Assembly (NCBI GenBank): GCA_964371935.1
Contig: CAYJOT010000001.1
Span: forward strand, 50,730-105,494
Direction of reading: 5' to 3'
DNA from: an uncultured Candidatus Saccharibacteria bacterium
GTDB lineage: Bacteria > Patescibacteriota > Minisyncoccia > Sungbacterales > HO2-52-23
Length of the DNA: 54,765 bases
Part shown: positions 8,937-54,246 of the stretch, one piece after another
How the letters are laid out: every line of letters starts with the position of its first letter
How positions within the stretch are numbered: the first letter of the stretch is position 1
Made by a program: the position numbers and the translations under genes
The notes under the pieces: model-generated
Database searches by the model: none
Told to the model about the DNA's origin: nothing
The model's input: the letters and a program-made list of their open reading frames with translations, nothing else

Positions 8937-11054
8937 TTATTTCTTCCCCTCTATAATCTGCTGGGCAACGTTGTGGGGCACTTCCTCGTATCGGTCAAAC
9001 TCCATAGTAGAGGACGCGCGTCCTTGAGTCAAGGACCGAAGCGTGGTCACGTATCCGAACATTTCGGACAACGGCACTTTGGCGGAAATGACCTTAATGC
9101 CCATGCCGCGATCATCCATGGCCTCAATGCGGCTGCGTTTGGAATTTAAATCCCCGGTTACTTCGCCCAAAAACTGCTCCGGCACCACTACCTCGATATT
9201 CATAATTGGCTCAAGCAAAACAAGTCCGGCGCGCTTGGTCACCTCCTGCAAACACATGGAGCCCGCAATCTTGAACGCAGCCTCGGATGAATCAACTTCG
9301 TGGTATGATCCGTCATAGAGCGTGATCTGCACATCCACCACCGGGTAGCCGGCAAGCACGCCGCGCTCAAGCGCCTCTTTCACACCTTTCTCAACCGCTG
9401 GAATATATTCCTGCGGTATCACGCCTCCCTTGATTGCATTTACAAATTCAAATCCCTTGCCTGCTCCAAGCGGCTCGGCCCGCAACCGCACATGACCATA
9501 TTGTCCGCGCCCGCCTGATTGCTTGATGTACTTGCCTTCGGCTTCGGCCTCTTTCTTGATGGTCTCGCGATACGCCACCTGGGGCCTGCCCACATTGGCC
9601 TCTACGCTAAACTCGCGCTTCATGCGATCCACCAAAATTTCCAGATGCAATTCGCCCATGCCCGAGATAATAGTATCGCCGGTTTCCAGGTCTCCTTTAA
9701 TCCGGAATGTCGGGTCCTCCTGGCTTAATCTGCGCAAGGCTATGCCCATTTTTTCCTGGTCTGCTTTGGTTTTTGGCTCGATTTTTAAAGACACGACCGG
9801 CTCCGGAAACTCAATTCTTTCAAGCACAATCGGGTGCTCCGGATCACAGATCGTATCGCCGGTATAGGTGTTTTTAAGCCCGACAATCGCGCCGATATTG
9901 CCCGCGCTGATCTCTTTCAATTCCTCGCGCGTATTTGCGTGCATGCGCAAAATTCTGCCCACGCGTTCCTGATCTCCTTTGGTTGCGTTCAACACATACG
10001 ACCCGGCTTTTAAGGTTCCGGAGTACACCCGAAAGAAAGTCAGCTGTCCCACATACGGATCGGACTGGAGCTTAAAGGCAAGCCCGGCAAACGGCGCATC
10101 ATCAGACGCGGCGCGATCTTCCTCAAGTCCGGTCTTTTCACTCATGCCTTTAACCGGCGGCAGATCAGACGGCGACGGCAGATAATCAATCACGCCGTCA
10201 AGCACCAGCTGCACGCCCTTATTTTTCAAAGCCGAACCCGCAAATACTGGCACAAGCTTGTTGGACAATGTGGCGCTGCGAAGCGCTTTCCGCAATTCCA
10301 ATATCGAAATTTCTTTTCCCTCAAGATATTGCTCGGTCAAAACATTATCGGTTTCCGCGATTTTTTCCACCATGTTATGGTGCCATTTTTCTGCTGTTTC
10401 TTTGAGCGCCGCGGAAATGTCCGATAATACCAGCTGCTCGCCATGCTCGCCGTTAAAAGACACTGCTTTCATTCGCATCAAGTCAATCACGCCCTCGTGC
10501 TCCTGCTCGTGTCCGATAGGCAGCGTTACCGGAACCGCATTTGGCGTAAGCCGTTCATAAATGGACTGCAGCGAGCGCTCAAACGACGCACCAATGCGAT
10601 CGAGCTTGTTGATAAAACAAATTCGCGGCACGCCAAATTTATCCGCTTGGCGCCACACAGTCTCGCTCTGGGGCTCCACGCCCGCAACGCCATCAAACAC
10701 CACCACCGCGCCATCAAGTACGCGCAAGCTACGCTGCACTTCAACCGTAAAGTCAATATGCCCCGGAGTGTCAATGATATTGAACCGATACTCGTTTTCC
10801 TTTCTGTCCCGTTCTTCATCGGAGAGATAGGTCTTTCGCCAAAACGCCGTGGTTGCCGCAGCCGTAATCGTAATCCCACGCTCCCGCTCCTGCTCCATCC
10901 AGTCCATAACCGTATCGCCCGTATGCACCTCCCCGATCTTGTGCGAAACCCCGGTATAAAAAAGCACTCGCTCCGTAGTGGTGGTCTTTCCCGCATCAAT
11001 GTGCGCGATAATCCCGATATTGCGTATTTTTTCTATGGGGTATTCGGCAGACAT
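8937..11054 (-). CDS. fusA: Elongation factor G
   Basis: 705 aa with [15 protein letters not shown] and DTPGHIDF motifs. Confidence 0.98.
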
Positions 11055-12818: not shown

Positions 12819-12877
12819 AACAAGATACTAATATACAAATATATGCGAATCTACAAATAGCTACGAATGGTATGATT

Positions 12878-13291
12878 TTATTTTTTCTGCCGTTTCGCTC
12901 CATACTTACTCCGCTGCTGCTTCCGTCCCTCAACCCCCTGCGTATCCAAAACCCCGCGCACGATGTGGTAGCGCACGCCCGGCAAGTCCTTGACGCGTCC
13001 GCCGCGAATCATGACCACCGAGTGCTCCTGCAGATTATGCCCCTCCCCGGGAATGTACGCCGTCACCTCCATGCCGTTGGTCAGCCGCACGCGCGCCACT
13101 TTGCGCAAAGCAGAGTTTGGTTTTTTCGGCGTCATGGTGGTCACCTTCACGCACACCCCCCGCTTAAACGGCGAAGCATACAACACTGGCCGGTTTTTGA
13201 GCACGTTAAATCCCCGCGCAAGAGCAGGCGCCTTTGTTTTATACTTTCGAACAACCCGTCCGCGCTTAATAAGCTGGTGAATGGTAGACAT
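12878..13291 (-). CDS. rpsL: 30S ribosomal protein S12
   Basis: ORF 12878-13315. The S12-type start [12 protein letters not shown] is at the internal Met (13291). [10 protein letters not shown] motif present. Confidence 0.95.
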
Positions 13292-13375
13292 AGAACAACA
13301 GGAAAAGAATAGCAAACATTCGCTTTTTCGTCAAACCAAAAAATAAAAAGCCCACCAATGATATGCCACATAATC

Positions 13376-13413
13376 TACCAAAAATATTATCCGATAGGTA
13401 TAAATTTTTGGTA
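13376..13413. repeat. 38-nt REP-like hairpin, copy 1 (TACCAAAAAT-N18-ATTTTTGGTA with conserved loop CCGATAGGTATA)
   Basis: 10-bp perfect arms. Very similar copies lie at 31765-31802 (same orientation) and 32414-32451 (inverted). Confidence 0.65.
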
Positions 13414-13424
13414 ATATACGACTT

Positions 13425-14069
13425 TCAAAAAATCGGCATGCTCCCAGTAATCAGCCGAAAGAGCAAAAGTACGATCGGCAGGAGAAAACCCGAGAAAAAG
13501 AAGATGAAGATCAGCAGCATGATAAATCCGTACTGGGTGAGAAAGGTTTCTACCTCGTGCCATCGGTACGGAAGCAACGCAAACAAAACTTTGGAGCCGT
13601 CAAGCGGCGGGATGGGCACGAGGTTGAAAAGCGCCAGAACAAGATTGAGCACGGCAATGGTGCTTGCGATGGTCAGAAAATTGAACAAGAATGTGCCGGT
13701 CATATTATTTTGCAGTGTCGGCACAAAACGCACGAACAGTCCGAATGCGAGCGCAAGCGAAAGGTTTGCGGCAGGCCCGGCAGCGCCTACGATCGCCGGA
13801 CCCCACTTTTGATTTTTGAGATTATGCGGATTGTACGGCACCGGTTTCGCCCAACCGATAATCGGCATCTGGAAAAACGCGAGGAGTGCGGGCAGCAGGA
13901 TTGAGCCAAACGGATCAAGATGGCTGACCGGATTCAGAGTCAGGCGTCCCGCGTATTTGGCAGTACGATCCCCCAATGCTAAGGCCGCATAGCCGTGCGC
14001 CACTTCGTGGATCACCACCGAAAACAGAATAATCAATATCTGAAAAATCACCTGGATTGCATTTTCCAT
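13425..14069 (-). CDS. Site-2 protease family (peptidase M50) membrane metalloprotease
   Basis: HEVAHG zinc motif in the first TM segment, multiple hydrophobic helices, and an LDG motif. Confidence 0.85.
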   Translation of the reverse strand: MENAIQVIFQILIILFSVVIHEVAHGYAALALGDRTAKYAGRLTLNPVSHLDPFGSILLPALLAFFQMPIIGWAKPVPYNPHNLKNQKWGPAIVGAAGPAANLSLALAFGLFVRFVPTLQNNMTGTFLFNFLTIASTIAVLNLVLALFNLVPIPPLDGSKVLFALLPYRWHEVETFLTQYGFIMLLIFIFFFSGFLLPIVLLLFRLITGSMPIF

Positions 14070-14093
14070 GAAAAAATGTTAGAGTGGTCGCAT

Positions 14094-14282
14094 ATGGCAA
14101 ACACCTGTACCATCTGCGGCAAAGGATCGGTCAAGGGCGGCGCACGTTCGTTCCTCCGCAGCCATTATAACCCAACCGCATCGGTTCGCAAACGCCCCAA
14201 CCTCCAATGGGGCAAACTTGACAATGGCACACGCGCCAAAATGTGCGCCAAGTGCTTGAAAATACGCTCGAAAAAATCCTAA
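14094..14282 (+). CDS. rpmB: 50S ribosomal protein L28
   Basis: The internal Met of ORF 13995-14282 gives MANTCTICGKGSVKGGARS...HYNPT, which is L28-like. Confidence 0.85.
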   Translation: MANTCTICGKGSVKGGARSFLRSHYNPTASVRKRPNLQWGKLDNGTRAKMCAKCLKIRSKKS

Positions 14283-17138: not shown

Positions 17139-18461
17139 ATGTTCGCATTGAACAAAAATCGTCTTGTTATAATAATCATCTTGCTCGCACTCGCGAGCCT
17201 TTTGCTTTTGGGATACTTTCAAGCCAGGCATGAGCGCAAAGAAGTGCCCGACGTCCGTCTGGTGACTTCCTCGCCTCAAAAAACTGCCGAGTCCGCAATG
17301 GAAACGAACACCCCGTCACAAAAAACCGCATCAGTATCTTTTGCCGGCACGACTCCCGTTCAAATTAAAAATACAACGCCGCGCGCTTCAGTCACCATAC
17401 CGCTTGCGGATATCAAGACGTGCATGATTAAGCCGGTACAGCAAATCGGGCCATGCTATGATGCGCTCTTCCGCACATTTCTCAAAACCAATACGACCAT
17501 GGATGCGCTCAAGATCGTGGCACGCTATGAAGACACGGATTCGCAATTGCGCTATGCGTGCCACCCGGTAGTGCATGCGATCGGCCGCGAAACATTTGCC
17601 AAAACAGGCACCGTGCACGACTCGTTTGCCGCATGCGACCAGACCTGCCACTCCGGCTGCTACCATGGTGCGGTGGAGCACTTTATCCGCGGCGATCATC
17701 CGCCAGTTGGCGGAGACGGCACGATCAGACACATTAGCGAAGAAGAGCTGGAAGCAAAAATAATCGCCGCGTGCCCCGCCAACCAGCCAGGCCGGTTCCG
17801 GTTTCAGTGTTTGCACGGTCTCGGGCATGCCCTGCTTTTCTCGCTCGAGTATAAACTCGAAAACACGCTACAGACATGCGACAAGCTCGGCACCGGATGG
17901 GACCGGAGCTCATGCTGGGGCGGCGCATTCATGGAAAACTTGTTTCCGTCCGATCCGACCAAAAGCGACGTAAGCGCCACCGATTACCACTACCCGTGCG
18001 ATAAGCTCGGCGACCAATACAAAAGCGACTGCTACGTCATGCAGACCACACGCATGACCACCATGGGGCTCAATACCGCCGGGCTTTTTACCGAGTGTAG
18101 GAAAGCCGGCAATTACGCACTCTCGTGTATCCAATCAATCGGCAGAGATCTTTCCAATGACGCGCGCATAAAAGACCCGCGCCTCACCGCCGAAAAGTGC
18201 GAGTTCGGGCAAACCGATGCCGAACGCCAATCCTGCATCCGCGGCGTGATCTACGCGCTTATGGATAATACATGGGACGGCCAATACGCCTTCCCGTTCT
18301 GTAAGACATTTGCAAACGAATCCGACCGCGCCTATTGCGCAACCGCAAGCGCCCGGTATTTGCGCGCAACGTACGATAAGACAAAAGAGGCGATTCTCAA
18401 CGACTGCGTACTGCGAACTCAAGACCAAGCCGCATGTGCAGAGACGGTTAAGGAACTGTGA
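17139..18461 (+). CDS. Membrane-anchored cysteine-rich repeat protein (hypothetical)
   Basis: Start MFALNKNRLVIIIILLALASLLLLG is an N-terminal TM segment. Repeated C-x-x-G-x-G/H motifs follow (CHSGCYHGAVEHF, QCLHGLGHAL, CIQSIGRDL, CIRGVIYAL). Confidence 0.5.
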   Translation: MFALNKNRLVIIIILLALASLLLLGYFQARHERKEVPDVRLVTSSPQKTAESAMETNTPSQKTASVSFAGTTPVQIKNTTPRASVTIPLADIKTCMIKPVQQIGPCYDALFRTFLKTNTTMDALKIVARYEDTDSQLRYACHPVVHAIGRETFAKTGTVHDSFAACDQTCHSGCYHGAVEHFIRGDHPPVGGDGTIRHISEEELEAKIIAACPANQPGRFRFQCLHGLGHALLFSLEYKLENTLQTCDKLGTGWDRSSCWGGAFMENLFPSDPTKSDVSATDYHYPCDKLGDQYKSDCYVMQTTRMTTMGLNTAGLFTECRKAGNYALSCIQSIGRDLSNDARIKDPRLTAEKCEFGQTDAERQSCIRGVIYALMDNTWDGQYAFPFCKTFANESDRAYCATASARYLRATYDKTKEAILNDCVLRTQDQAACAETVKEL

Positions 18462-18491
18462 CGCAAGATTTGGTTATCCACAGCATTGATA

Positions 18492-18520
18492 TTGACAACT
18501 CTCACATAAGGGAATATGCT
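18492..18520 (+). promoter_or_regulatory. Sigma70-type promoter TTGACA-N17-TATGCT
   Basis: Consensus -35 at 18492-18497 and -10 at 18515-18520. No protein gene lies downstream. Confidence 0.45.
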
Positions 18521-18526
18521 CTATGT

Positions 18527-18595
18527 AGATGACGAGTTTGCTATGATCGGTACCGGTTGATTCCCCGAAGAGCCCCGTAAGGGGCTTTTCTTTTT
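18527..18595 (+). ncRNA. Predicted ~69-nt sRNA (locus 1) whose 5' end is antisense to the adjacent tRNA-like anticodon arm
   Basis: It runs from the predicted TSS to the intrinsic terminator AGCCCC-GTAA-GGGGCT + TTTCTTTTT (18571-18595). Nt 18529-18542 are the exact reverse complement of 18657-18670. Confidence 0.4.
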
Positions 18596-18632
18596 ATCTC
18601 AATGCCATGGTAGTATGCGTGTGTGGATACGA

Positions 18633-18703
18633 GGGCCGAGTCCGATCGGCATCGGGAGCAAACTCGTCATTTTGCTTTAGAGGTTCGACTCCCCCTCGGT
18701 CCA
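18633..18703 (+). ncRNA. Aberrant tRNA-like RNA, 8/4 acceptor/T geometry, 8-nt anticodon loop (locus 1)
   Basis: Extended -10 TGgTAGTAT at 18608-18616. Fold: acceptor GGGCCGAG/CTCGGTCC, D arm CCGAT-CGGC-ATCGG, anticodon stem AGCAAA/TTTGCT with loop CUCGUCAU, T arm GAGG-TTCGACT-CCCC (one A.C mismatch), discriminator A. Confidence 0.4.
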
Positions 18704-18708
18704 CGCCT

Positions 18709-18735
18709 AAAAAGCTGCCATAACGGCGGCTTTTT
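18709..18735. terminator. Bidirectional intrinsic terminator (AAAAA-GCTGCC-ATAAC-GGCGGC-TTTTT)
   Basis: The hairpin is flanked by an A-run and a T-run. It overlaps the argH stop and ends the tRNA-like unit. Confidence 0.65.
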
Positions 18736-20044
18736 AGATTTGTTTGAATTTTCTCTGCTGCTTCTGAACTCTTGCCCGATAATACCCAATACTTAAATTC
18801 CCCGGAGCACCCAAACTCTTTTTTGAGGCAATATTTTCCTCCAAGTTTGGTATGTAATCGCGCAGCATGCCCATAGCCGCCTTGTAGGCATCTCTGAATG
18901 GAATATCTTTTTCGAGCACCAATTTGTTGGCAATATCCGCAGCAAAGATGTCTTTATGAATCTTAATCCGTATGTTTTCGCTTTTAGGAGCAAGTCCTTT
19001 GAGGACGATCTTCACCACCTCGAGACTACCCAATATGATCTTTACACTCTCCATGAGCGGTTTCTTGGTGAGCTGTAAATCCCTGTTATATCCGGATAGC
19101 AAATTTTTGTTGATCCCTTTTACCGCAAGTTGGTTTGCGCTTACCACACCCACATTGCCACGTAAAATTTCCATCACGTCCAGGTTGTGCTTATGAGGCA
19201 TGATACTGGATCCTGTTACAAGACTCTCATGTACCACGAAGAAATCAAACTCTTGCGACGTGAATAAAAGCAGGTCATGTGCGAATCTGCCCAGGGTCGA
19301 CATAACTTGCACCAGCGCTTCAAGAAAAAGACTTTCAAACTTGCCCCGTGAATTTTGGCAGTACAAGGCATTGACCTGAATATCCACAAACCCGAGTTCT
19401 TTCGTGGTGAATACCCGGTCGAGCGGAATAGACACGCCGAAACCGGCGGCAGAACCTAATGGGTTTTTATCAAGGTGCTTTGCAACGAGCATCAGATAAT
19501 CCGCATCGTCAAGTAAACTTTCCACAAAACTCAACATATAGTGCCCCGCGCTTGAGAGCATGGCTTGCTGGGTATGCGAATACCCGGGCATGGGAATGTC
19601 TTTGTACTTTTTGGCAAAATCCAAAAAAGCTGCGGCAAGTGTCACGCATTTCTGCGAGATCATCATAAGATTGTGCTTCATATATAACCGCAATGCGACC
19701 AGTACTTGATCATTCCTGCTTCTGCCCGTATGAATTTTTTTTCCAACATCTCCAAGTTTTTGCACGAGATAATTTTCAATAATCGTATGACAGTCCTCGT
19801 CTGCCGGAGTGATTTTTATTTTCCCGGCGTGAAATTCCTTTTCTATCAACTCAAGCGTTTTAAGAATCTTTTTTAGTTCTTGACGAGTAAGGACGCCGAT
19901 TTTGTGCAGTCCTTTTGCATGCGCTCTGCTTGCCTGTATATCAAAAGGCATCAGAATCGCATCGAAAATATAATCCTGCCCTGCGGTGTATTTTTCAATA
20001 ACCGGATTGAGTTCTTGTTTTGATTTTTTCCACAATTTTGTCAT
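18734..20044 (-). CDS. argH: Argininosuccinate lyase
   Basis: Fumarate-lyase family signature SSIMPHKHNLDVME. Start taken at MTKLWKK (20044), just after the argG stop. Confidence 0.92.
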   Translation of the reverse strand: MTKLWKKSKQELNPVIEKYTAGQDYIFDAILMPFDIQASRAHAKGLHKIGVLTRQELKKILKTLELIEKEFHAGKIKITPADEDCHTIIENYLVQKLGDVGKKIHTGRSRNDQVLVALRLYMKHNLMMISQKCVTLAAAFLDFAKKYKDIPMPGYSHTQQAMLSSAGHYMLSFVESLLDDADYLMLVAKHLDKNPLGSAAGFGVSIPLDRVFTTKELGFVDIQVNALYCQNSRGKFESLFLEALVQVMSTLGRFAHDLLLFTSQEFDFFVVHESLVTGSSIMPHKHNLDVMEILRGNVGVVSANQLAVKGINKNLLSGYNRDLQLTKKPLMESVKIILGSLEVVKIVLKGLAPKSENIRIKIHKDIFAADIANKLVLEKDIPFRDAYKAAMGMLRDYIPNLEENIASKKSLGAPGNLSIGYYRARVQKQQRKFKQI

Positions 20045-31510: not shown

Positions 31511-31537
31511 AAAAATCTGTGGATAAGAGGGCAAAGG

Positions 31538-31566
31538 TTGACTTTTTTATTAGGATATGCTATGAT
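31538..31566 (+). promoter_or_regulatory. Candidate promoter TTGACT-N17-TATGAT (plus strand)
   Basis: Divergent from the nrdJ promoter. It precedes the small ORF at 31609, which has an AAGGAG RBS. Confidence 0.45.
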
Positions 31567-46748: not shown

Positions 46749-47198
46749 ATGAATGAACTTTCTGTCAACCGCCGGGCGCATTTTGACTACTCAATCCTCG
46801 AGACCTACGAGGCCGGATTGGCGTTGACCGGATTTGAGGCAAAGGCGGCCAAAGCCGGGCGCATGAGTTTGACTGGTGCGTTTGTGGTCACGAGGGACAA
46901 TGAGGCATGGCTGCTCAATGCAACGATCTCGCCGTACCAGCCCAAAAATACACCGCCAAATTACGATCCTGAACAATCGCGCCGGCTTCTTCTGCACCGC
47001 TCGGAAATCAAGGAATTGATTGGGAAAACCAGCCAGAGCGGTTTGACAATTATCCCATTACGGGTGTATACTTCGCACAATCGCGTGAAGATAGTGATCG
47101 GGCTTGCCCGCCACAAAAAGCAGGGTGACAAGCGCGAAACCATCAAAAAACGCGAAGCGCAAAAAGAGATCGGACGCGCATTAAAAAATAGGGGGTGA
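46749..47198 (+). CDS. smpB: SsrA-binding protein SmpB
   Basis: NRRAHFDYSILETYEAG ... GLTIIPLRVY is SmpB-like. tmRNA lies immediately downstream. Confidence 0.95.
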   Translation: MNELSVNRRAHFDYSILETYEAGLALTGFEAKAAKAGRMSLTGAFVVTRDNEAWLLNATISPYQPKNTPPNYDPEQSRRLLLHRSEIKELIGKTSQSGLTIIPLRVYTSHNRVKIVIGLARHKKQGDKRETIKKREAQKEIGRALKNRG

Positions 47199-47561
47199 CG
47201 GGATTCGACGGATTTTTGAACGCACAAAATCAGGTTGGAGACGCGCGGTTTCTCCATAAACCGTCCGCGCAACACATAAGTGCAAACTTATTGACGAAAG
47301 CACGAGATTCGCTCGTAGCCATTTTTGGCAACAGCGCTCTTGCTCCCGCATACGCCTAAGTAATTAGGCGCGTGCCATCGGCCTCTTGACGCTCGTAGGA
47401 GAGATCACCGGTGTCATACATCGAGCTTGGCGATTCCGATTGTTCGATACGAATCGCGACATTATCGGACAAACCCGTTGAGCCGCAAGGCAAGACAAAA
47501 CCTGTACATAAGTTTTTTGCCGGAAAAAGTTCGGACACCGGTTCAACTCCGGTCATCTCCA
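47191..47561 (+). ncRNA. ssrA: tmRNA (SsrA), about 371 nt, no encoded CCA
   Basis: 5' GGGGGTGACGGGATTCGACGG. 3' T arm CCGG-TTCAACT-CCGG plus acceptor TCATCTCC-A pairing with the 5' end. Candidate tag ORF GCA AAC ... GCT CTT GCT CCC GCA TAC GCC TAA. Confidence 0.85.
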
Positions 47562-47665
47562 TCGCGTCAAACGCGATTTATCGCGGTGGACGAGATGAGC
47601 CACGTCTGATCGCGTCTGACGCGACTGACGTGGCCACTCGTACCACAATATACAATAATATAAGC

Positions 47666-47941
47666 GTGTTTTATGTCTATATTTTATTTTCAAAAAAGGA
47701 TCATGGTCTTTATATCGGCTTTACTAAAGATTTAAAGCAAAGGTTCAAGCAACACACTGCGGGTCAAGTGCGATCTACAAAATACAGGAATCCGCTCCTT
47801 TTAATTCATTACGAAAGTTTCTTATTAAAAGAGGACGCGACTGCACGAGAAGAATATCTCAAAAGTGGGTACGGTAGAGAACAGTTGAAGTCACAACTCA
47901 AACAACTTTTTATGAAACTCAAAGTAAGGTGGCTAAAATAA
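47666..47941 (+). CDS. GIY-YIG nuclease-family small protein (GTG start)
   Basis: (M)FYVYILFSKKDHGLYIGFTKDLKQRFKQH ... AREEYLK is GIY-YIG. The upstream part of ORF 47411-47941 overlaps tmRNA and is discarded. Confidence 0.75.
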   Translation: MFYVYILFSKKDHGLYIGFTKDLKQRFKQHTAGQVRSTKYRNPLLLIHYESFLLKEDATAREEYLKSGYGREQLKSQLKQLFMKLKVRWLK

Positions 47942-48069
47942 ACGAACTGGGCTATAAATTATTTTCTATGAAACCACTCCTTCCTATTTCCACAGTATTA
48001 CTTTTTCTCATTCATAGAAAATGAAAAAAATTTGCGCTATACGGAGGATTAATAGGAGCGGCTGTCGGG

Positions 48070-48294
48070 TTGTTTGAGCTTTTTATCGTTGCCCCCACTC
48101 TCCCCACTGCGGTAGTTCTTTTTCTTTATTATTTTTCGTGGGCATTTGCTATAGATATACTTGTTCGATACATTCCTGGTGATACTGCTATGGGCATTGG
48201 GTTTTTTCTCATGCCCATAATCTCTGCGGTAGCATTTAGTATATACGGCATTATCATCGGCGTGGTACTACGCATACTCCGTAACCAGCAATAA
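48070..48294 (+). CDS. Hypothetical small membrane protein
   Basis: 74 aa with 2-3 hydrophobic helices. Confidence 0.35.
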   Translation: MFELFIVAPTLPTAVVLFLYYFSWAFAIDILVRYIPGDTAMGIGFFLMPIISAVAFSIYGIIIGVVLRILRNQQ

Positions 48295-48445
48295 ATAATT
48301 TCAGGATTTTTTGTCAACGCACAAACAGAGATGCATGAGCTTATATAACTAAGAGGTTGTAACATTCTCCCCTCATAAGATGAGCAAATATGCTGATTAC
48401 GGCTAATTTGTTCTCTGTCATCATATCTGATATCATAGAGATAAT

Positions 48446-48936
48446 ATGTCCCTCCATCGGAAAAAGTATCAGAATGCCATTTTGTACTTGTGCCAGCAGT
48501 TGAAGGGCGAAGTGCGGGGCAAGAAAAAGCTGGCGAAATTGCTGTATTTCGCGGATTTTGATTTTTATGAAAAATATCAGAAATCTATTACGGGCGATGT
48601 GTATCGCGCCCTTCCTATGGGGCCTGTGCCAAGCGCGTTAGAAGAGATCACCGAAGAGATGAGAAAGAAAAAAACACTTGCTATTGAGCATATTGAGGAA
48701 CATAAGGGATATAATCCGACAGAAGTATTTCGTTGTATAGCAGAGCCGGATGTGTCCGTCTTTGATGTAAAAGAAAAAAGATGCTCGATAGGGTCGTTCT
48801 CAAATACGGAAACCTGACGGGCAAACAGCTGGAAGAATTGTCTCATGCGGAGGCGCCCTATACTGCCGCACAGCCATACCAAGAAGTGCCGTATGAGTTT
48901 ACGTATTATCGCGGCACGGATTTCAGCGACTTATGA
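48446..48936 (+). pseudogene. Panacea/DUF4065 (SocA-like) antitoxin-domain gene split by a frameshift in an A-run near 48771-48780
   Basis: The N-terminal part KLAKLLYFADFDFYEKYQKSITGDVYRALPMGPVP (ORF 48446-48817) continues in another frame as MLDRVVLKYGNLTGKQLEELSHAEAPY... (48781-48936). Confidence 0.6.
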
Positions 48937-49163
48937 TAACATTTTCGTACCACGACGGTTTTGAGAAAGAAATCGCCGCTCTAGAAAAGCGGCGCTCGCA
49001 TTGTTCTTTTATGCATCTCATCGCATATTGATAATTATAATGACGAGCACATGAATCGTCTCACCATGTCGCGGGTGTCGGACTTCTCTTGATCATTGAC
49101 TTTCTTCCCCCTATCATGTATAGTCCCGTATGTAAGGTAAAATCAATTTAAACTTTTTTTACT

Positions 49164-49673
49164 ATTCAACGACGTTATCGTATTAATCAACTTATCCGCA
49201 CCACGCCGATCCGAGTCATTGATGACGAGGGGGCTAATCTGGGCGTGATGGAAACCACTGACGCACTTCGTCTTGCCAACGAACGCGGGCTTGACCTTAT
49301 TGAGATCGCGCCGACCGTGAAGCCGCCTGTGTGCAAGATCATGGACTTTGGCAAGTTCAAGTACGAGCGAGAAAAGGGAGAACGCGAGCAAGGCAAGAAG
49401 CGCAAAGACACGAGCGAGGTCAAGGGCGTGCGCATCGGATTTCTGACCGGCACACACGATCTTGAGCTGCGCGCCAAAAACATCAAGAAATTCCTTGATG
49501 AAGGCCACAAGGTGCGGATCGACATGAAGCTGGTGGGCAGGCAGAAAGCCCACGGCCCGTTCGCGCTTGAGAAGTTCAACGCGTTTCTGGAGATGATCCC
49601 TACGGACTTTACCATAGAGCTCGCCCCAAAGCGCCTGCCGCACGGATTGCTTGCGGTGATAACAAAAAAATAA
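49164..49673 (+). CDS. infC: Translation initiation factor IF-3, probable AUU start
   Basis: The conserved N-terminus INQLIRTTPIRVIDDEGANLG lies upstream of the first ATG/GTG. In-frame ATT codons at 49164 and 49182 follow the in-frame TAA at 49149. Confidence 0.85.
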   Translation: MQRRYRINQLIRTTPIRVIDDEGANLGVMETTDALRLANERGLDLIEIAPTVKPPVCKIMDFGKFKYEREKGEREQGKKRKDTSEVKGVRIGFLTGTHDLELRAKNIKKFLDEGHKVRIDMKLVGRQKAHGPFALEKFNAFLEMIPTDFTIELAPKRLPHGLLAVITKK

Positions 49674-49674
49674 T

Positions 49675-49740
49675 GCAAATCTACGAATGTATACGAATGC
49701 TCCGAATAGATTTCATTCGCGGCATATGCATAGGATTTGC
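49675..49740 (+). promoter_or_regulatory. Irregular ~66-nt hairpin in the infC-rpmI spacer (candidate L20-responsive leader)
   Basis: GCAAATC/GGATTTGC, TGTATA/TATGCA and CGAATG/CATTCG helices. The position matches known L20 autoregulatory leaders. Confidence 0.35.
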
Positions 49741-49754
49741 ACCATTCGCATTTT

Positions 49755-49937
49755 ATGAGTCGAAAAGCCGTTCTCAAACGAATCAAATTTACTCGAACCG
49801 GAAAAGTGCTCCGCCGCCGCGCCGGACACAATCATTTTAATGCCAAAAAGGGACAGAGCGAGCAGGGGCGCAAAAAAGGCATGCTGGGTTTTACTCCCGC
49901 TCTTGAGAAAAAAATGAGGGCATACGCAAACCAATAA
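49755..49937 (+). CDS. rpmI: 50S ribosomal protein L35
   Basis: MSRKAVLKRIKFTRTGKVLRRRAGHNH is L35-like. It starts at the internal Met of ORF 49737-49937. Confidence 0.85.
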   Translation: MSRKAVLKRIKFTRTGKVLRRRAGHNHFNAKKGQSEQGRKKGMLGFTPALEKKMRAYANQ

Positions 49938-49952
49938 GCTTCCAACTTATTT

Positions 49953-50336
49953 ATGACCAGAGTCAAACGAGGAACCATTGCCCATAAGCGGCGCGAAAAA
50001 CTTCTCAAATATGCGAAGGGATTTCGCTGGGGGCAAAAAAATAAAGAAAGGCTTGCGCGGCAGGCATTGCTGCACGCATGGCCAAACGCATTTGTCGGAC
50101 GCAAACAAAAGAAACGCAATTTCCGCCGCCTGTGGCAAATAAAAATCGGCGCCGCAACCCGCGCCCAGGGTATTTCATACAGCGCATTTATCGGCGGGCT
50201 TAAAGACAAAAAAATCGAGATAGACCGCAAAATCCTCGCCGAGCTTGCCGAGAACTACGCATCGGCGTTTCAGAAAATTTTGTTTGTCTCTCATCCTGTG
50301 ACGGCAGACGAGTGTGCTACTCCAGATACCAGATAA
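49953..50336 (+). CDS. rplT: 50S ribosomal protein L20
   Basis: MTRVKRGTIAHKRREKLLKYAKGFRWG is L20-like. Confidence 0.93.
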   Translation: MTRVKRGTIAHKRREKLLKYAKGFRWGQKNKERLARQALLHAWPNAFVGRKQKKRNFRRLWQIKIGAATRAQGISYSAFIGGLKDKKIEIDRKILAELAENYASAFQKILFVSHPVTADECATPDTR

Positions 50337-50482
50337 GCACTGGTGATGTTGAGCATGTCCTTTTTTCCCGCCGTTGGTTTTCTGCAATTTGTTTCTTTGT
50401 GAAGCTCCTCCTATGACTTCGCCTTTTTCGCTATCCGCGCGAGTTGTTTGTCAAAAGTAACGAAGCAACCCAGACCGAGCTA

Positions 50483-52336
50483 TCAACGAGATGCGCCATA
50501 CAAAATGTGATCTATTGCACCACTCATGTTCTCTTTTTTACGAAATTTCAATGCCCGTAAGAATTCTTTGAGCGGGCGCGTGTTGATGATGTCTTTTTTT
50601 TCGGCCCAGCCGCGGCGGGCCTGGGCGATGCCGTATTCGAGAAACTTAAAGTGATCGGCCGCGTGCGCATCCGAGTCAATCGTCATTTTCACTCCGGCTG
50701 CAACGCATTTACGGATGTATTCGTCTTTGAGATCGAGACGTTCGGGCGATGCGTTGATCTCCAGGACCGTGCCGGTGCGTTTTGCCGCGGCAATGATCGC
50801 GTCAATATCAAGATCAATTGGCTCGCGTTTGTTGATGCGCCTGCCAGTCAGGTGGAAAATAATATCTACGTGCGGATTTTCCATGGCGCGGATCACGCGG
50901 GCCGTTTGTTCCATACGCGAAAGGCGGAAATGACTGTGCACTGATGCGCCAACCATGTCGAGCCGGGCAAGCATTGCATCCGCGATGTCGAGCGTACCGT
51001 CTTTCATAATATTGACTTCGGCACCGGTAAGCACGGCACAGTTAATTTTTTTCTTCTGCAGCTCTTTGTTCACTTGTTTGATCTCCATAATTTGCTGCGC
51101 GAGCTTTTTCTCATCCAATCCACCAGTCATAGCAAGAGATTTGGTATGGTCCGTAATCGCAATATATTCGAGCCCCGCGTCTGACGCGGCCATTGCCATT
51201 TCTTCAATCGAATTATCACCGTCGGTCCAGTCGGTCTGCACCTGTAAATCACCGCGCAATTCACCATACCCAATAAGATTCGGCAACCCTATTCCAGACT
51301 TAGTCTGGAATAAATCCCGAGATTCCAGACTAAGTCTGGAACGAATTGCTGCAGCATCAATCTCGCCTGTGTTCTCGCGAAGCTCTGGTTCGATATAGTG
51401 AAGCCCGAGTTTTGTATAAATCTCCTCCTCGGTTTTGCCTGCCATCATCTTTGTGCCGTCTTGTCCGCCTTTGGAGGAAGACATGCCGTACTCATTGAGC
51501 TTCCATCCTTTTGTGATGGCAAGCTTGCGGAGCGCCACATTGTGTTCTTTGGATCCGGTAAAATAATTCAATGCCGCGCCATAAGATTTTTTAGGCACGA
51601 TGCGCAAATCCGCATCCAGCCCGTTGGTAAGCCGCACATTAGTTTTGGTCTGCCCATGTCCGTACACATGGCTGATAAATGGCAGCGCAAGAAAACGTTT
51701 GGTAACCGCATCCGGCTCTGACGATGCAACCACAATATCAATATCACCGACTGTTTCTTTTCTCCGGCGTATTGATCCGACAACCATCGCATCCTCGACT
51801 TCCGGAAACGAGCGGATCATCTGCTCAAGCGTGCGCGCTTCGGGCAGGATTGAGCCAAGCAGCTTTCGCCCGCCGGATTTTTTGAGAAATTCAATTCCCT
51901 TGAGAATACCCGCCTCCGACTTTTCGCCGAGTCCGGGAAGCGCGCGGATCTTCCCGGCTTTTGCCGCGGCCTCAAGATCCACAAGATTTTTGATGCGCAA
52001 CTTCTGCCAGAGCAATTTGATCATCTTGGGCCCCACGCCCTCGACTGCCGCAAGTTCGAAAACCGCAATCGGATACTTTTGAGAAAGCACCGCGTGCTCG
52101 CGAAAATCCCCTTTTCGTAAAAGCTCGTCCAAATGATCCGCGATCCCCTTTCCCACGCCGGGAATATCCGCAAATGCGTCTCTTCCCCTTTCCCGATACA
52201 GTCCGGCAAGTTCAGAGCCAAGCAACTCAATGGATTGACCAGCCCGCTCGTACGCGGCCGGCTTAAAGGCAACGTTCTCCATTTCAAAGAATATCGCCAT
52301 CTCATGCAATATGTTGGCAATTTCGCGGTTGGTCAT
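50483..52336 (-). CDS. polX: DNA polymerase X family protein with C-terminal PHP domain
   Basis: HhH motifs, GSIRRRKETVGDIDIVV nucleotidyltransferase motif, and PHP motifs ITDH, SVHSHF, EINASPERLDL, DSDAH. The first PHP motif reads GDLQVQT instead of HxH. Confidence 0.9.
   Translation of the reverse strand: MTNREIANILHEMAIFFEMENVAFKPAAYERAGQSIELLGSELAGLYRERGRDAFADIPGVGKGIADHLDELLRKGDFREHAVLSQKYPIAVFELAAVEGVGPKMIKLLWQKLRIKNLVDLEAAAKAGKIRALPGLGEKSEAGILKGIEFLKKSGGRKLLGSILPEARTLEQMIRSFPEVEDAMVVGSIRRRKETVGDIDIVVASSEPDAVTKRFLALPFISHVYGHGQTKTNVRLTNGLDADLRIVPKKSYGAALNYFTGSKEHNVALRKLAITKGWKLNEYGMSSSKGGQDGTKMMAGKTEEEIYTKLGLHYIEPELRENTGEIDAAAIRSRLSLESRDLFQTKSGIGLPNLIGYGELRGDLQVQTDWTDGDNSIEEMAMAASDAGLEYIAITDHTKSLAMTGGLDEKKLAQQIMEIKQVNKELQKKKINCAVLTGAEVNIMKDGTLDIADAMLARLDMVGASVHSHFRLSRMEQTARVIRAMENPHVDIIFHLTGRRINKREPIDLDIDAIIAAAKRTGTVLEINASPERLDLKDEYIRKCVAAGVKMTIDSDAHAADHFKFLEYGIAQARRGWAEKKDIINTRPLKEFLRALKFRKKENMSGAIDHILYGASR
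51291..51342. repeat. Double palindrome element inside polX (same family as 14635-14684)
   Basis: ATTCCAGACTTAGTCTGGAAT (51291-51311), a 10-nt spacer, then ATTCCAGACTAAGTCTGGAAC (51322-51342). Confidence 0.85.
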
Positions 52337-52442
52337 GCGCTTGATTTTGAATCAGTATTTTTTACTTCTTTTCCTCCGCCCACTTTTTCCATGCAGCCAA
52401 AAGGCGGAATATCTTGGTACGGTTGTACGCATAATCCTAATG

Positions 52443-52808
52443 CTAACCGCGGATCTTCTTGGTGATGGCGTTAAAAATAAGGTTAAGCTCTTTTGCTTCT
52501 TGCCAGAGAACCCGACATTCTTCGGTAAACTCCGGGCAGGCAACGGCGATCATTCGAAACCAATGTTTGGATTCGCGGGCCTCTTTTTTAAAAATGCCGA
52601 TTTTATGCACAAAATCCTTTTTTGATTCGGCATCATCTGCCTCGCAATAGTTTGCGCCAACACTTGTTCCTGCTCTTACCAACTGGCTGATAATGGAAAT
52701 TGTCACAACACTCTTTGGGATTTTTTTAGTAAAGAGAATGACCGACTCTCCAAATTTTGCCGTCCGCTCTTCAAGGTCGTATTGCTTGGGATTTTCTTCA
52801 TTGGTCAT
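52443..52808 (-). CDS. Four-helix-bundle protein (23S rRNA intervening-sequence protein family)
   Basis: QLVRAGTSVGANYCEADDAESKKDFVHKIGIFKKEARESKHW is the family signature as I recall it. Confidence 0.8.
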   Translation of the reverse strand: MTNEENPKQYDLEERTAKFGESVILFTKKIPKSVVTISIISQLVRAGTSVGANYCEADDAESKKDFVHKIGIFKKEARESKHWFRMIAVACPEFTEECRVLWQEAKELNLIFNAITKKIRG

Positions 52809-52839
52809 TGGGATTTGATTAGATCAATTAGAAATTAGG

Positions 52840-53913
52840 TCAATTTATGAGCATCTTTTGTCTTCTTTTTGCCTTCTTCTTATACACCACATGCAGCGGG
52901 AAAAATTCGTGATAGCTTTTCTCGTCAAACCACGCGCACTTAAAATTGTAGAGTTTCAAGCCGGTAAGCCGCGAGAGCGCGAGCGCGTAGAACGTGAGCT
53001 GGTTGATCGGCTGCTCTTTTTTGGCAGCTGGCTTATAATCTAAAATGTGTATAGCGCCGTTGCGCACCTGCACGATATCAATGTGGCCAGTCAGCGTTTT
53101 TTCCAGCGTAAGCGGAATCGTAAACCCCAAGACGCTTTTCATGTGATCCAGATCCTCGGGCGTGAAGTAGATCGGCACCTCCACCGCGACCGTTACCGAG
53201 TCGTTGGCGAGCATAAATCGCTCCAGCGCCTCGTGCCGCTCTTTGTTGTTTTGCACGGCCTGCAATGCCAGCCCAGCAAGACGGTTTGCAAAATTATGCT
53301 TTTCGCGGATCATGACGCGCTCCATATCAAACTTCGCTTTTACTTCGGACGCGCGTACCCCCTCGCGAAAGTACTGATGCGGACACTCTACGGACACGTT
53401 GTCCAAAAATTCCTTGAGCCGGTACAGAGGCTCGTTTTTAAAGTCCTCTTCAAGCAATAATTCCAGTTTAGCAGGATGGTAGCGAAATGTATACACCTGG
53501 CGGTGGTAGAGGGTAGCGGACACCAGGGTCTGCTGGGGCGTATACAGGCGCATGGCATACTCGCGCATCCGCCGATAGGTGCACAGTTCGCGATATTCTT
53601 CGATCCACTGCCCCACCGTGGACGGGGCCACCGCAAGCCCGTATTTGGCTTTGAGAAGCTTGCATGAATTTTCCATGGAGTAGCCAAGATTGTAGTAGGA
53701 CATGCCGTCGAAGATCACGCGGAGCGGAAAGCTTTTCCCTTTCACCATCTGCGGCGTAAATACTTTTTTGCAGTCCGCGCAATACCACAGCTGCACGATC
53801 TCCATTTTTTTCTCGCGCCGCCCCTTTTTCACGATAGCACTCCCGCTGCAATACGGGCATTTTCCCTGAACGGAGCCGATGATGGATTTTTTTGGTTTTG
53901 TCATGCGTGGCAT
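52840..53913 (-). CDS. Zinc-ribbon + HTH (IS1 InsA-like) N-terminus fused to a PD-(D/E)XK (RecB/Cas4-like) nuclease domain
   Basis: CPYCSGSAIVKKG...WYCADCKKVF, then an HTH-like segment APSTVGQWIEEY. C-terminus: E..P...GHIDIV...ILDYKP...QLTFYALAL (D, D/ExK and QxxxY motifs). Confidence 0.6.
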   Translation of the reverse strand: MPRMTKPKKSIIGSVQGKCPYCSGSAIVKKGRREKKMEIVQLWYCADCKKVFTPQMVKGKSFPLRVIFDGMSYYNLGYSMENSCKLLKAKYGLAVAPSTVGQWIEEYRELCTYRRMREYAMRLYTPQQTLVSATLYHRQVYTFRYHPAKLELLLEEDFKNEPLYRLKEFLDNVSVECPHQYFREGVRASEVKAKFDMERVMIREKHNFANRLAGLALQAVQNNKERHEALERFMLANDSVTVAVEVPIYFTPEDLDHMKSVLGFTIPLTLEKTLTGHIDIVQVRNGAIHILDYKPAAKKEQPINQLTFYALALSRLTGLKLYNFKCAWFDEKSYHEFFPLHVVYKKKAKRRQKMLIN

Positions 53914-53931
53914 AGATGTGGATAATGGGGC

Positions 53932-53959
53932 TTGACAGATTCTCTTGTTTTGCTATACT
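53932..53959 (+). promoter_or_regulatory. Strong sigma70-type promoter TTGACA-N16-TGcTATACT
   Basis: Consensus -35 at 53932-53937 and extended -10 at 53951-53959. It is divergent from the nuclease gene. Confidence 0.5.
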
Positions 53960-53965
53960 AATATT

Positions 53966-54046
53966 GTTTATCAGGCCGCGGCTCCATTTCGATGGAATCG
54001 AATCATCAATAACAATCTCGACAATCTCGGGGTTGTTATTGTTTTT
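53966..54046 (+). ncRNA. Predicted ~81-nt sRNA (locus 2) whose 5' end is antisense to the adjacent tRNA-like anticodon loop
   Basis: It runs from the predicted TSS to a 15-bp terminator hairpin (54007-54041) plus TTTTT. Nt 53968-53975 (TTATCAGG) are complementary to CCTGATAA at 54111-54118, with 2 more pairs after one mismatch. Confidence 0.4.
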
Positions 54047-54060
54047 ATGAGCGGTATAAT
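54033..54060 (+). promoter_or_regulatory. Promoter TTGTTA-N16-TATAAT for the tRNA-like RNA
   Basis: A perfect -10 at 54055-54060 lies 20 nt upstream of the cloverleaf start. The -35 lies in the preceding terminator arm. Confidence 0.45.
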
Positions 54061-54079
54061 AAAAGCGCGGAGCGGTATT

Positions 54080-54167
54080 GGAGGGTATTGTCGCACGGTT
54101 GCGACCACGACCTGATAATTCGCTGATTCGGTTCATATCGAATGGAGTTCGACTCTCCTGCCCCCCG
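54080..54167 (+). ncRNA. Sec/allo-tRNA-like cloverleaf (8-bp acceptor, 6-bp D stem with 4-nt loop, long variable arm, 4-bp T stem), anticodon-loop sequence CUGAUAA
   Basis: Acceptor GGAGGGTA/TGCCCCCC (one A.C, one G.U), D arm GTCGCA-CGGT-TGCGAC, weak anticodon stem, V arm ATTCG-N8-CGAAT, T arm GGAG-TTCGACT-CTCC, discriminator G. Confidence 0.45.
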
Positions 54168-54176
54168 TGTCAAAGG

Positions 54177-54202
54177 GTCTCGGCTATGCGCCGGGACTTT
54201 TT
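54177..54202 (+). terminator. Intrinsic terminator after the tRNA-like RNA
   Basis: GTCTCGG-CTATGCG-CCGGGAC followed by TTTTT. Confidence 0.6.
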
Positions 54203-54246
54203 GATTTTCGATTTTGAATTCATTAGTCATTTTTACTTCTCATCTT

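Follow-up and report, generated by a model that had tools for sequence, protein, structure and literature searches.

Predicted small RNAs that match the anticodon arms of adjacent allo-tRNA-like RNAs in Parcubacteria

Introduction

What are two small RNA genes doing side by side, if the first begins with the exact reverse complement of the anticodon stem-loop of the second? The question arises in a stretch of 54,765 nucleotides (nt), which we call the window, from an uncultured Candidatus Saccharibacteria bacterium (contig CAYJOT010000001.1 of GenBank assembly GCA_964371935.1, positions 50,730 to 105,494 of the forward strand). Within it, a gap of 270 bp separates the end of a gene for a Cys-rich, membrane-anchored protein (at 18461) from the stop codon of the convergent argH (at 18734). 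A preliminary description of this sequence read the gap as a cassette with a promoter, a small RNA (sRNA), a terminator, a second promoter, a tRNA-like RNA, and a second terminator. That layout agrees with consensus scans for promoters and terminators, with the predicted fold of the second RNA, with a complementarity of 14/14 nt between the two RNAs, and with a check for open reading frames (ORFs), which found no credible ORF in the gap.

The preliminary description also suggested that the two RNAs are a dedicated pair, with the 5' end of the sRNA directed against the anticodon stem-loop of its neighbor. Homologous pairs in related bacteria, in which changes in one RNA are mirrored in the other, bear this out. 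We think it likely that the two RNAs have been selected to pair with each other.

Complementarity of the two RNAs

At the first locus, the sRNA (sRNA-1) is predicted to be about 70 nt long (18527..18597, + strand; both ends are predictions) and to consist of a 5' seed, a small hairpin, and an intrinsic terminator. Its antisense block, ATGACGAGTTTGCT (18529..18542, +), begins 8 nt past the -10 hexamer of the promoter and is complementary at 14/14 positions to 18657..18670 (+), which comprises 6 nt on the 5' side of the anticodon stem and the entire 8-nt loop of the tRNA-like RNA (tRNA-like 1; 18633..18703, +). The promoter of sRNA-1, TTGACA-17-TATGCT (18492..18520, +), matches the consensus at 10/12 positions and is kept in two contigs from relatives, L152 and L149. 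The consensus scan also identified a strong intrinsic terminator of sRNA-1 at 18567-18590 (+) and a terminator at 18707..18737 that is common to tRNA-like 1 and the convergent argH. Between the two RNAs, we recognized by reading the sequence an extended -10 promoter, TGgTAGTAT (18608..18616, +), which is TGGTATTAT in L152 and TGATATAAT in L149.

As the preliminary description had noted, both the layout and the placement of the antisense block recur at a second locus (53932..54205). The promoter of sRNA-2, TTGACA-16-TATACT (53932..53959, +), has 11/12 matches, includes the TG, and is kept in L015, a contig from another relative. sRNA-2 is predicted to be about 83 nt (53966..54048, +), with a 5' seed, a UUCG hairpin, and a terminator at 54007-54041. 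Its antisense block, TTATCAGGCCGCGG (53968..53981, +), is complementary at 12/14 positions to a target block in the anticodon arm of tRNA-like 2 (54105..54118, +). tRNA-like 2 (54080..54167, +) has the promoter TTGTTA-16-TATAAT (54033..54060, +; TTGTTT...TAGAAT in L015), whose -35 lies within the terminator of sRNA-2. The terminator of tRNA-like 2 (54169..54205, +, from the consensus scan) has stem halves that are both almost identical in L015. At both loci in the window, the start of the antisense block lies exactly 8 nt past the -10 hexamer, and the block covers 6 nt of stem and 8 nt of loop.

Could this complementarity arise by chance? The preliminary description considered this unlikely. 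Inverted repeats that match at 14/14 positions, as at locus 1, with a spacing of 85-160 nt were absent from 30 Markov simulations of the window. In contrast, 12/14 inverted repeats are common (about 17 are expected per window). The repeat at locus 2 is therefore significant only via its position and its ortholog.

To find homologs, we relied on contigs of relatives that were obtained via the neighboring protein genes, so our sampling is biased. Beyond the window, three related Parcubacteria (Sungbacteria-like) assemblies contain three full cassettes and one orphan sRNA, which gives 5 full cassettes in 4 organisms, all with one layout. Finding such pairs in relatives was the preliminary description's own test. 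L015 is a Logan contig, and its cassette (4260-3985, - strand) is the ortholog of locus 2. It keeps both promoters, the T loop, and the terminator, and its sRNA block GGTTATCAATCAGTG is complementary to its own anticodon arm at 15/15 positions. The cassette of L152 (5290-5560; Ca. Sungbacteria GCA_016196115.1) lies downstream of a homolog of the Cys-rich gene and is the ortholog of locus 1. L149 (Ca. Sungbacteria GCA_016206285.1) has an orphan copy of sRNA-1 directly after its Cys-rich homolog (about 8966-9093, +), with the promoter, the seed ATGACGAGTTTGCT, and the terminator intact. About 500 bp beyond the orphan is a full cassette, L149b (9590-9830). (A 160-amino-acid gene of unknown family lies between the two.) We refer to locus 1, L152, and L149b as type 1 and to locus 2 and L015 as type 2.

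We compared the five cassettes in a common register, with position 1 of the sRNA block opposite nt 8 of the loop. Over the 14 positions, the cognate combinations have 14, 13, 13, 12, and 13 Watson-Crick pairs, while non-cognate combinations have 3-10 pairs, or just 3-8 if the two cassettes differ in the type of sRNA and anticodon. At 12 of the 14 positions, two or three types of base pair occur across the cassettes. The clearest case is L149b, whose tRNA body is identical to that of locus 1 and carries another anticodon arm, GAGCAGG-AUUGCUAC-CCUGCUC. The sRNA of L149b starts with AGGGTAGCAATCCTGC, which is a perfect 16-nt complement of this new arm. Within the block, the arms of locus 1 and L149b differ at seven positions, and all seven differences are mirrored by a complementary change in the sRNA. 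Between locus 2 and L015, the arms differ at four positions, three of which have a compensatory change in the sRNA. The complementarity is thus kept by complementary changes on both RNAs, as the preliminary description had predicted for a real pair.

Predicted energies agree with the counts of pairs. Cofolding of cognate RNAs gains -12.6 to -15.9 kcal/mol, versus 0 to -3.7 kcal/mol for non-cognate combinations (up to -7.9 kcal/mol between related pairs). In 4 of the 5 cassettes, the predicted dimer uses the duplex of the seed and the anticodon arm, and the predicted dimers of type 1 extend into the D arm to give an imperfect duplex of about 30 bp.

These results bear on two other explanations for the complementarity. 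First, the repeats might act in the DNA, as a recombination site or a hairpin, or they might be a relic, that is, an inverted duplication of a tRNA pseudogene without RNA function. Their spacing of 114-123 nt could come from an inverted duplication, both of the window's tRNA-like RNAs have an A.C mismatch, and pseudogenes are known among allo-tRNAs (the class that we discuss below). Nevertheless, we give this idea hardly any credence. The complementarity is kept across cassettes while the sequence changes, the block lies at a fixed 8 nt from a near-consensus -10 in all copies, the promoters and terminators are conserved, and the stems have compensatory changes, which together argue for ongoing selection at the level of RNA. 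Also, unlike the terminal repeats of transposons, the arms differ in sequence between copies, and no repeat of a tmRNA or tRNA end marks an integration site.

Second, the sRNA might be an effector that acts on mRNAs or canonical tRNAs, with the tRNA-like RNA as a sponge that titrates it. (In a variant of this idea, the tRNA-like RNA is a decoy for an anticodon nuclease and is controlled by the sRNA.) The sRNA is indeed built like a classic trans-acting sRNA with a 5' seed, and the locus-2 seed UUAUCAG would, judging from its sequence, also fit the loop of the canonical tRNA-Ile(GAU). Furthermore, we found no complementary tRNA-like partner for the orphan sRNA-1 on the 11.8-kb contig L149, although this also fits the pattern of an orphan antitoxin. 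An external target should fix the seed, yet the seeds change wholesale between close relatives, along with the stem and loop of the partner, and matches to the locus-1 seed elsewhere in the window do not exceed 11/14. A pure mimic also needs neither marks of aminoacylation identity nor a full cloverleaf that is compatible with an L shape. We consider an effector with a sponge or decoy quite unlikely.

Fold and class of the tRNA-like RNAs

For all five tRNA-like RNAs, the minimum free energy (MFE) structure is a cloverleaf whose acceptor stem has 8 bp and whose T stem has 4 bp (an 8/4 fold). The cloverleaf was proposed in the preliminary description, and covariation supports it. Between locus 2 and L015, 12 of 30 pairs differ at both nucleotides, and pairing holds in 98.3% of cells; as a control, if the 3' partners are slid by 1-3 columns, then just 0-2 compensatory pairs and 29-52% pairing remain. 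Every helix of type 2 has at least 2 compensatory pairs, with 3 each in the D arm (a 6-bp stem with a 4-nt loop) and the 7-bp variable arm. At the eighth position of the acceptor stem, A-U is replaced by G-C, and the T stem has compensatory changes in 2 of its 4 pairs, which is why we prefer the 8/4 split to the 7/5 split.

tRNA-like 1 (18633-18703) is predicted to fold with -27.9 kcal/mol (z = -2.3). Besides the 8-bp acceptor, it has a D arm CCGAU/CGGC/AUCGG. Its anticodon stem is 7 bp long and carries the 8-nt loop CUCGUCAU, its variable region comprises 3 nt, and its T stem, in which one of the 4 pairs is an A.C mismatch, has the loop UUCGACU. We counted the D arm of type 1, with its 5-bp stem (6 bp with a U.G pair) and the loop CGGC, as a tRNA-Sec-like long stem with a tetraloop. 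Some details of the preliminary description need revision. It gave the anticodon stem 6 bp, but there is an additional G.U pair. The A.C mismatch in the T stem is present, but it is specific to this strain, with G-C in relatives. The lack of an encoded CCA is real but uninformative, because the canonical tRNA-Pro in the window does not encode CCA either. Finally, the palindrome CGGTACCG that follows the antisense block of locus 1 is not kept in relatives.

What kind of tRNA is this? None of the five was called by ARAGORN, and they are not canonical tRNAs: besides the 8/4 fold, they have anticodon loops of 8-9 nt and no call by RF00005 at the gathering score. In searches with the Rfam model for tRNA-Sec (RF01852), L015 scored 46.8 bits (E = 1.6e-6), L149b scored 29.4 bits, L152 scored 26.5 bits, and window locus 1 scored 22.0 bits (E = 0.05), all of which are below the gathering score of 47 bits. 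Locus 2 had no match to any tRNA family in Rfam. With a 4-bp T stem (bacterial tRNA-Sec has an 8/5 fold), no UCA anticodon, and these scores, the RNAs are not tRNA-Sec (selC) either. The types are related to each other: a covariance model of type 2 matches the type-1 RNAs with E = 8e-5 to 9e-4 (9e-4 for tRNA-like 1, with the locus-2 model), above all canonical tRNAs in the same sequences, and our models of the two types (R1 and R2) cross-detect the other type better than canonical tRNAs.

Sub-threshold matches to tRNA-Sec are how Mukai et al. (NAR 2017, PMC5389517) discovered the allo-tRNAs. Allo-tRNAs have a 12-bp acceptor branch that is divided as 8/4 or 9/3, a D stem that is long and ends in a tetraloop, as in tRNA-Sec, and usually a long variable arm. 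Their identity elements, either G73 or U73 with a long variable arm (for serine) or G3:U70 (for alanine), do not match their anticodons, of which UAU, GCG, and GUC predominate (PMC5389517). Like allo-tRNAs, our tRNA-like RNAs have an 8-bp acceptor, a 4-bp T stem, and a 6-bp D stem with a tetraloop, and they lie near toxin-antitoxin (TA) and mobile genes. They also combine serine or alanine marks with non-matching anticodons, and the predominant classes of allo-tRNA include GUC as well as an anticodon for Ile. Specifically, type 1 has G1-C72, G2-C71, G3.U70, and A73, which is the alanine set, and an 8-nt loop whose anticodon is GUC (Asp) or GCU (Ser AGY). Type 2 has the serine marks of a long variable arm and G73, with the core loop (C/U)UGAUAA (CUGAUAA in tRNA-like 2) and the Ile anticodon GAU. 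Type 2 has every structural feature of an allo-tRNA. Unlike the known allo-tRNAs, which are from Clostridia, Proteobacteria, and Acidobacteria, ours are from Parcubacteria, and in type 1, the variable region is just 3 nt long and the anticodon loop has 8 nt. Judging from its sequence, we classify the tRNA-like half of the cassette as a phylogenetically distant new member of the allo-tRNA class, with type 1 as a variant.

The anticodon loops appear to be kept for more than pairing. In all four distinct loops, nt 4 is G, nt 7 is A, and either nt 2 or nt 3 is U. These correspond to the anticodon-loop features U33, G34, and A37, which pairing with the sRNA would not need.

Promoters and expression

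All six copies of the sRNA have a perfect TTGACA as the -35 and a good -10. The putative promoters of the tRNA-like RNAs are an extended -10 (type 1) or have a weak -35 that is embedded in the sRNA terminator (type 2). RNA antitoxins are usually made abundantly and face a stable target that is weakly transcribed. From the asymmetry of the promoters, we infer such an arrangement here, with an abundant sRNA and a stable, weakly transcribed tRNA-like RNA.

Each sRNA promoter is also preceded by a sequence that matches the DnaA-box consensus: a perfect TTATCCACA occurs 6-10 nt upstream of every sRNA -35. In the window, there are 3 perfect copies (0.29 expected), each 6-11 nt upstream of a near-consensus -35. 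These are at 18474..18482 (+), 9 nt upstream of the -35 of sRNA-1; at 53917..53925 (-, so in the opposite orientation), 6 nt ahead of the -35 of sRNA-2; and at 31518-31526 (-), where the box precedes a promoter at 31538-31566. With up to one mismatch, there are 20 copies in the window, versus 9.4 expected. In the relatives, the box is at 4271-4279 of L015, 8970-8978 and 9592-9600 of L149, 5291-5299 of L152, and 1844-1852 of L147. In this lineage, TTATCCACA looks like the site of a promoter-proximal regulator.

Instead of a separate transcript, the sRNA could be the 5' leader of a read-through precursor, so that the pairing would be in cis, as in a T-box-like device by which the tRNA-like RNA senses itself. 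The two genes follow each other on one strand, just about 35 nt apart; at locus 2, the first terminator extends over the -35 of the second promoter; and a leader that reads a tRNA by pairing with its anticodon is the principle of the T-box. A T-box pairs with the NCCA end and with 3-4 nt of the anticodon loop, which stays intact; it controls a downstream gene in cis, and the tRNA remains folded. In contrast, 14-16 nt would pair in our cassettes, and the stem would be invaded. Also, all copies have strong intrinsic terminators (stems of 10-15 bp and a T-run), both types keep the second promoter, and the orphan sRNA in L149 stands alone. We found no match to the T-box model or to any other leader family, even with E up to 10, and no antiterminator alternative that would pair with the 3' end of the tRNA. 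A cis-acting leader therefore seems very improbable.

We also considered whether the sRNAs encode small peptides. An ORF for the peptide MTSLL is possible at locus 1 but has no counterpart at locus 2, so we rejected this reading.

Proposed mechanism and alternatives

Our proposal builds on what we observed in the cassettes, namely, their layout, the cloverleaf fold, the relationship to a known family, and covariation between the two RNAs. We propose that the sRNA neutralizes a harmful, mis-decoding tRNA, much like an antitoxin, although our doubts about this slightly outweigh our belief in it. The second gene would encode a tRNA-Sec-like 8/4 allo-tRNA whose identity marks do not match its anticodon. 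If this tRNA is charged and used, it would cause mistranslation across the proteome, with Asp, Ser, or Ile codons being misread as Ala or Ser, or it would cause frameshifts via its 8-nt loop. The first gene, with its near-consensus promoter, would produce an sRNA of about 70-80 nt whose first 14-16 nt are single-stranded. This 5' end would first form a kissing contact with the anticodon loop and would next invade the stem along its 5' strand, and in type 1 the pairing would continue into the D arm. The anticodon would be masked and the tRNA unfolded, and the duplex would probably be marked for degradation. The sRNA would thus act specifically on its own tRNA, as an antidote or off-switch, with the tRNA as a stable toxin and the sRNA as an abundant and presumably short-lived antitoxin. 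Possible roles include addiction or abortive infection. That the tRNA-like RNA may be toxic is argued by analogy to the toxicity of allo-tRNAs in E. coli (PMC5389517).

With more hesitation, we suggest that the cassette might represent a new class of module, a protein-free and "programmable" RNA-RNA module, in which a missense- or frameshift-suppressor tRNA is silenced by an anti-anticodon sRNA, and the anticodon and the seed are a co-evolving pair that determines the specificity. If so, the cassettes would diversify like TA or immunity pairs.

Several observations weigh against these proposals. At locus 2 in the window, the seed has 8 perfect pairs and then 4/6, with two C.A mismatches, and the MFE dimer favors pairing of the sRNA's central hairpin with the variable arm. 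The body of the type-1 tRNA is invariant among its three copies and offers little covariation of its own. Support for its fold therefore comes from thermodynamics, from two compensatory pairs of the anticodon stem, and from its resemblance to type 2. Type 1 has a variable region of 3 nt instead of the long variable arm that is typical of most allo-tRNAs. The anticodon loops have 8-9 nt and not 7, and under one reading, locus 1 and L152 have C at the place of U33, so the tRNA-like RNAs may decode poorly. Each tRNA-like RNA in the window has an A.C mismatch, at 18681 (T stem of tRNA-like 1) or at 54082/54164 (acceptor pair 3 of tRNA-like 2), where the orthologs have G-C (L152 and L149) or A-U (L015). 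These mismatches may reflect attenuation or early decay in this strain. The sample is small, with 5 cassettes from one clade. The cassette is missing from syntenic sites of four relatives (L001, L002, L153, and L154), so it is dispensable, patchy, and accessory. The promoters, transcript ends, and terminators are consensus predictions from the sequence, and we infer where transcription ends, as well as aminoacylation, toxicity, relative stability, and biological role.

The same pairing could also serve as a gate for beneficial mistranslation or frameshifting. The tRNA would be released under certain conditions, for instance by a regulator that binds the TTATCCACA box, and would diversify the proteome or allow recoded genes to be read. 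There is precedent in the tRNAProX of Streptomyces, from a natural family of mistranslating tRNAs that can help under stress (PMC10404621). The conserved features of the anticodon loop also fit this reading, and the box before every sRNA promoter, along with the related TGTGGATA at the start of the type-1 tRNA-like transcript, suggests that expression is regulated and not constitutive. However, we saw no candidate for a recoded gene and no dedicated synthetase adjoining the cassettes, and the distribution of the cassettes is patchy, with mobile genes nearby. Also, the anticodon differs between close relatives (GUC or GCU on an identical body), which would be odd for dedicated recoding. We consider a recoding switch unlikely.

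Finally, the sRNA could be a guide for maturation or modification that directs a nuclease, a methylase, or an editing enzyme to the anticodon loop, like the C/D guides of archaea. The pairing over the anticodon loop is precise, and its position is conserved. But the sRNA has no boxes of the C/D or H/ACA type, no conserved protein partner adjoins the cassettes, and the pairing uses up the stem, so that the substrate would be unfolded rather than presented. We find a guide extremely doubtful.

Comparison to known systems

The preliminary description knew of no described system like this one. For the tRNA-like half, this is not correct, as the allo-tRNAs have been described (PMC5389517), but it does seem to hold for the antisense partner and the layout of the cassette. 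Allo-tRNAs insert Ser or Ala efficiently at non-cognate codons in E. coli, induction of some of them leads to growth arrest and death, and they are often found near TA genes (PMC5389517). Neither that study nor a 2020 review mentions a partner antisense sRNA. Across the full-text literature that we searched, whose coverage is incomplete, we found no description of an sRNA that is antisense to a tRNA's anticodon arm or of a partner RNA for an allo-tRNA. The partner sRNA, the cassette layout, and the co-evolution of the seed with the anticodon arm appear to be undescribed.

To our knowledge, no other bacterial sRNA has a tRNA anticodon stem-loop as its dedicated target, and we know of no function that has been assigned to allo-tRNAs since 2017. 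A cognate antisense sRNA would be a concrete and testable answer to how hosts live with toxic allo-tRNAs. Should the acidobacterial allo-tRNAs prove to have antisense partners as well, it would become clear how those cells tolerate them.

Each cassette shares one feature with TA systems that have an RNA antitoxin: an adjacent sRNA gene with specific complementarity to the presumed toxin RNA. In type I systems, such as tisB/IstR-1, an sRNA acts on a toxin mRNA, and in type VIII systems, such as SdsR/RyeA and CreT/CreA, the toxin is itself an RNA, with CreT sequestering a tRNA (PMC8501985). Like these systems, the cassettes have two small and adjacent genes, they need no protein of their own, and an abundantly transcribed sRNA would pair via a short seed with an RNA that is presumed to be harmful. 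As with CreT, the presumed toxicity is tied to tRNA and translation. Unlike in these systems, the presumed toxin is a tRNA-like adaptor, rather than an mRNA or a mini-mRNA that sequesters a tRNA, and the genes are in tandem rather than overlapping and antisense. The presumed antitoxin pairs with an anticodon arm, whereas CreA represses transcription through Cascade. If our proposal is correct, then the logic of RNA-only TA systems extends to a toxin that is an adaptor of translation.

Another genome-encoded tRNA whose identity and anticodon disagree is tRNAProX, which has a dedicated synthetase (ProRSx) in Streptomyces, shows toxicity in E. coli, and possibly confers a benefit under stress (PMC10404621). 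Unlike our tRNA-like RNAs, it has a canonical 7/5 fold, and its partner is a synthetase gene rather than an antisense sRNA. The expanded 8-nt anticodon loop of type 1 has its own parallel. Suppressor tRNAs of +1 frameshifts, such as sufD and SufB2, have such loops on tRNAs that can otherwise be charged; they are laboratory or spontaneous mutants of canonical tRNAs. Unlike type 1, they have neither an 8/4 fold nor a partner sRNA.

The pairing may also have a practical use, in that the same tRNA body with a different arm and a matching seed could be a template for switchable suppressor tRNAs in synthetic biology. More broadly, the cassettes add a regulatory RNA system to the tiny and poorly understood genomes of the Candidate Phyla Radiation (CPR).

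Searches for further cassettes

We scanned for 14-nt inverted repeats with at least 12/14 matches and a spacing of 85-160 nt that also had a terminator between the two arms and a sigma-70-type promoter whose end is 5-11 nt upstream of the left arm. Only the two loci and one weak false positive had this combination in the window. In the contigs obtained via the neighboring protein genes, the scan identified the three other cassettes (of L015, L152, and L149). The covariance models R1 and R2 found no additional copies in about 188 kb of related sequence.

The nearest relatives of ArgH and of the Cys-rich protein (66-74% protein identity) are from metagenome-assembled genomes of Parcubacteria/Patescibacteria that are labeled Candidatus Kaiserbacteria, Candidatus Sungbacteria, or "bacterium." Three short Logan contigs (L004-L006) have an identical argH and the same cassette, and because their DNA is 99.9-100% identical to the window (the same strain), they give no variation. 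In six relatives with 66-73% protein identity (L001, L002, and L007-L010), the cassette is absent beside argH. In two of these, canonical genes for tRNA-Cys(GCA) and tRNA-Leu(UAA) lie downstream of argH in the same orientation and replace the cassette (12409-13306 of L001 and 6974-7190 of L002).

Searches of viral contigs identified no cassettes. A pattern of a promoter plus a T loop had over 120 matches, all of which were ordinary tRNA arrays or noise. These matches give a background for chance complementarity: exact complementarity of 8-10 nt occurred in a few percent. A pattern for the T arm plus terminator of locus 2 had 10 matches to viral contigs and 1 match in a metagenome scan, all in random coding sequence. 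Exact patterns for the type-1 body had no matches to viral contigs, and BLAST of both cassettes against a phage database found nothing except one terminator-like 30-mer. One viral contig (IMGVR_UViG_3300007220_000270, our L066) encodes a tRNA that ARAGORN reports with a four-base anticodon (gatg; 623-706, -), beside a tRNA-Ile(UAU).

Neighboring genes

Locus 2 lies downstream of the tmRNA gene, among genes for GIY-YIG, SocA/Panacea-domain, PolX, 23S rRNA IVP, and PD-(D/E)XK proteins. The PD-(D/E)XK gene (52840-53913, -) encodes an IS1/IS1595-type zinc ribbon and a Cas4-like nuclease domain. Its family is very large and conserved to an unusual degree, with 3474 matches, at 55-60% identity, from CPR bacteria, DPANN archaea, Omnitrophica, and Endomicrobia; on viral contigs, we found none, whether by single sequence or by profile. 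A gene of this family is within 1.5 kb of the cassette in 3 of 6 distinct loci and also occurs without a cassette, which suggests a mobile gene that possibly favors cassette sites. We rejected an obligate link because close homologs in L011-L014, L147, and L148 have no cassette.

Elsewhere, a HicA toxin gene is about 2 kb from the cassette of L152, and L015 has a Y1 transposase gene. The neighborhoods of the cassettes are rich in mobile and TA genes. About 7 kb from the cassette of L152 is a pair of genes (12841-14235) that resembles a diversity-generating retroelement, with a reverse transcriptase and bAvd.

The tmRNA upstream of locus 2 (47191-47564, +) has an unusually long tag, ANLLTKARDSLVAIFGNSALAPAYA, and is followed by accessory-looking genes (47411-53913). 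We considered the remnant of an integration site of the tmRNA or a tRNA and rejected the idea: the 3' end of the tmRNA is not repeated, and the sequences are unrelated.

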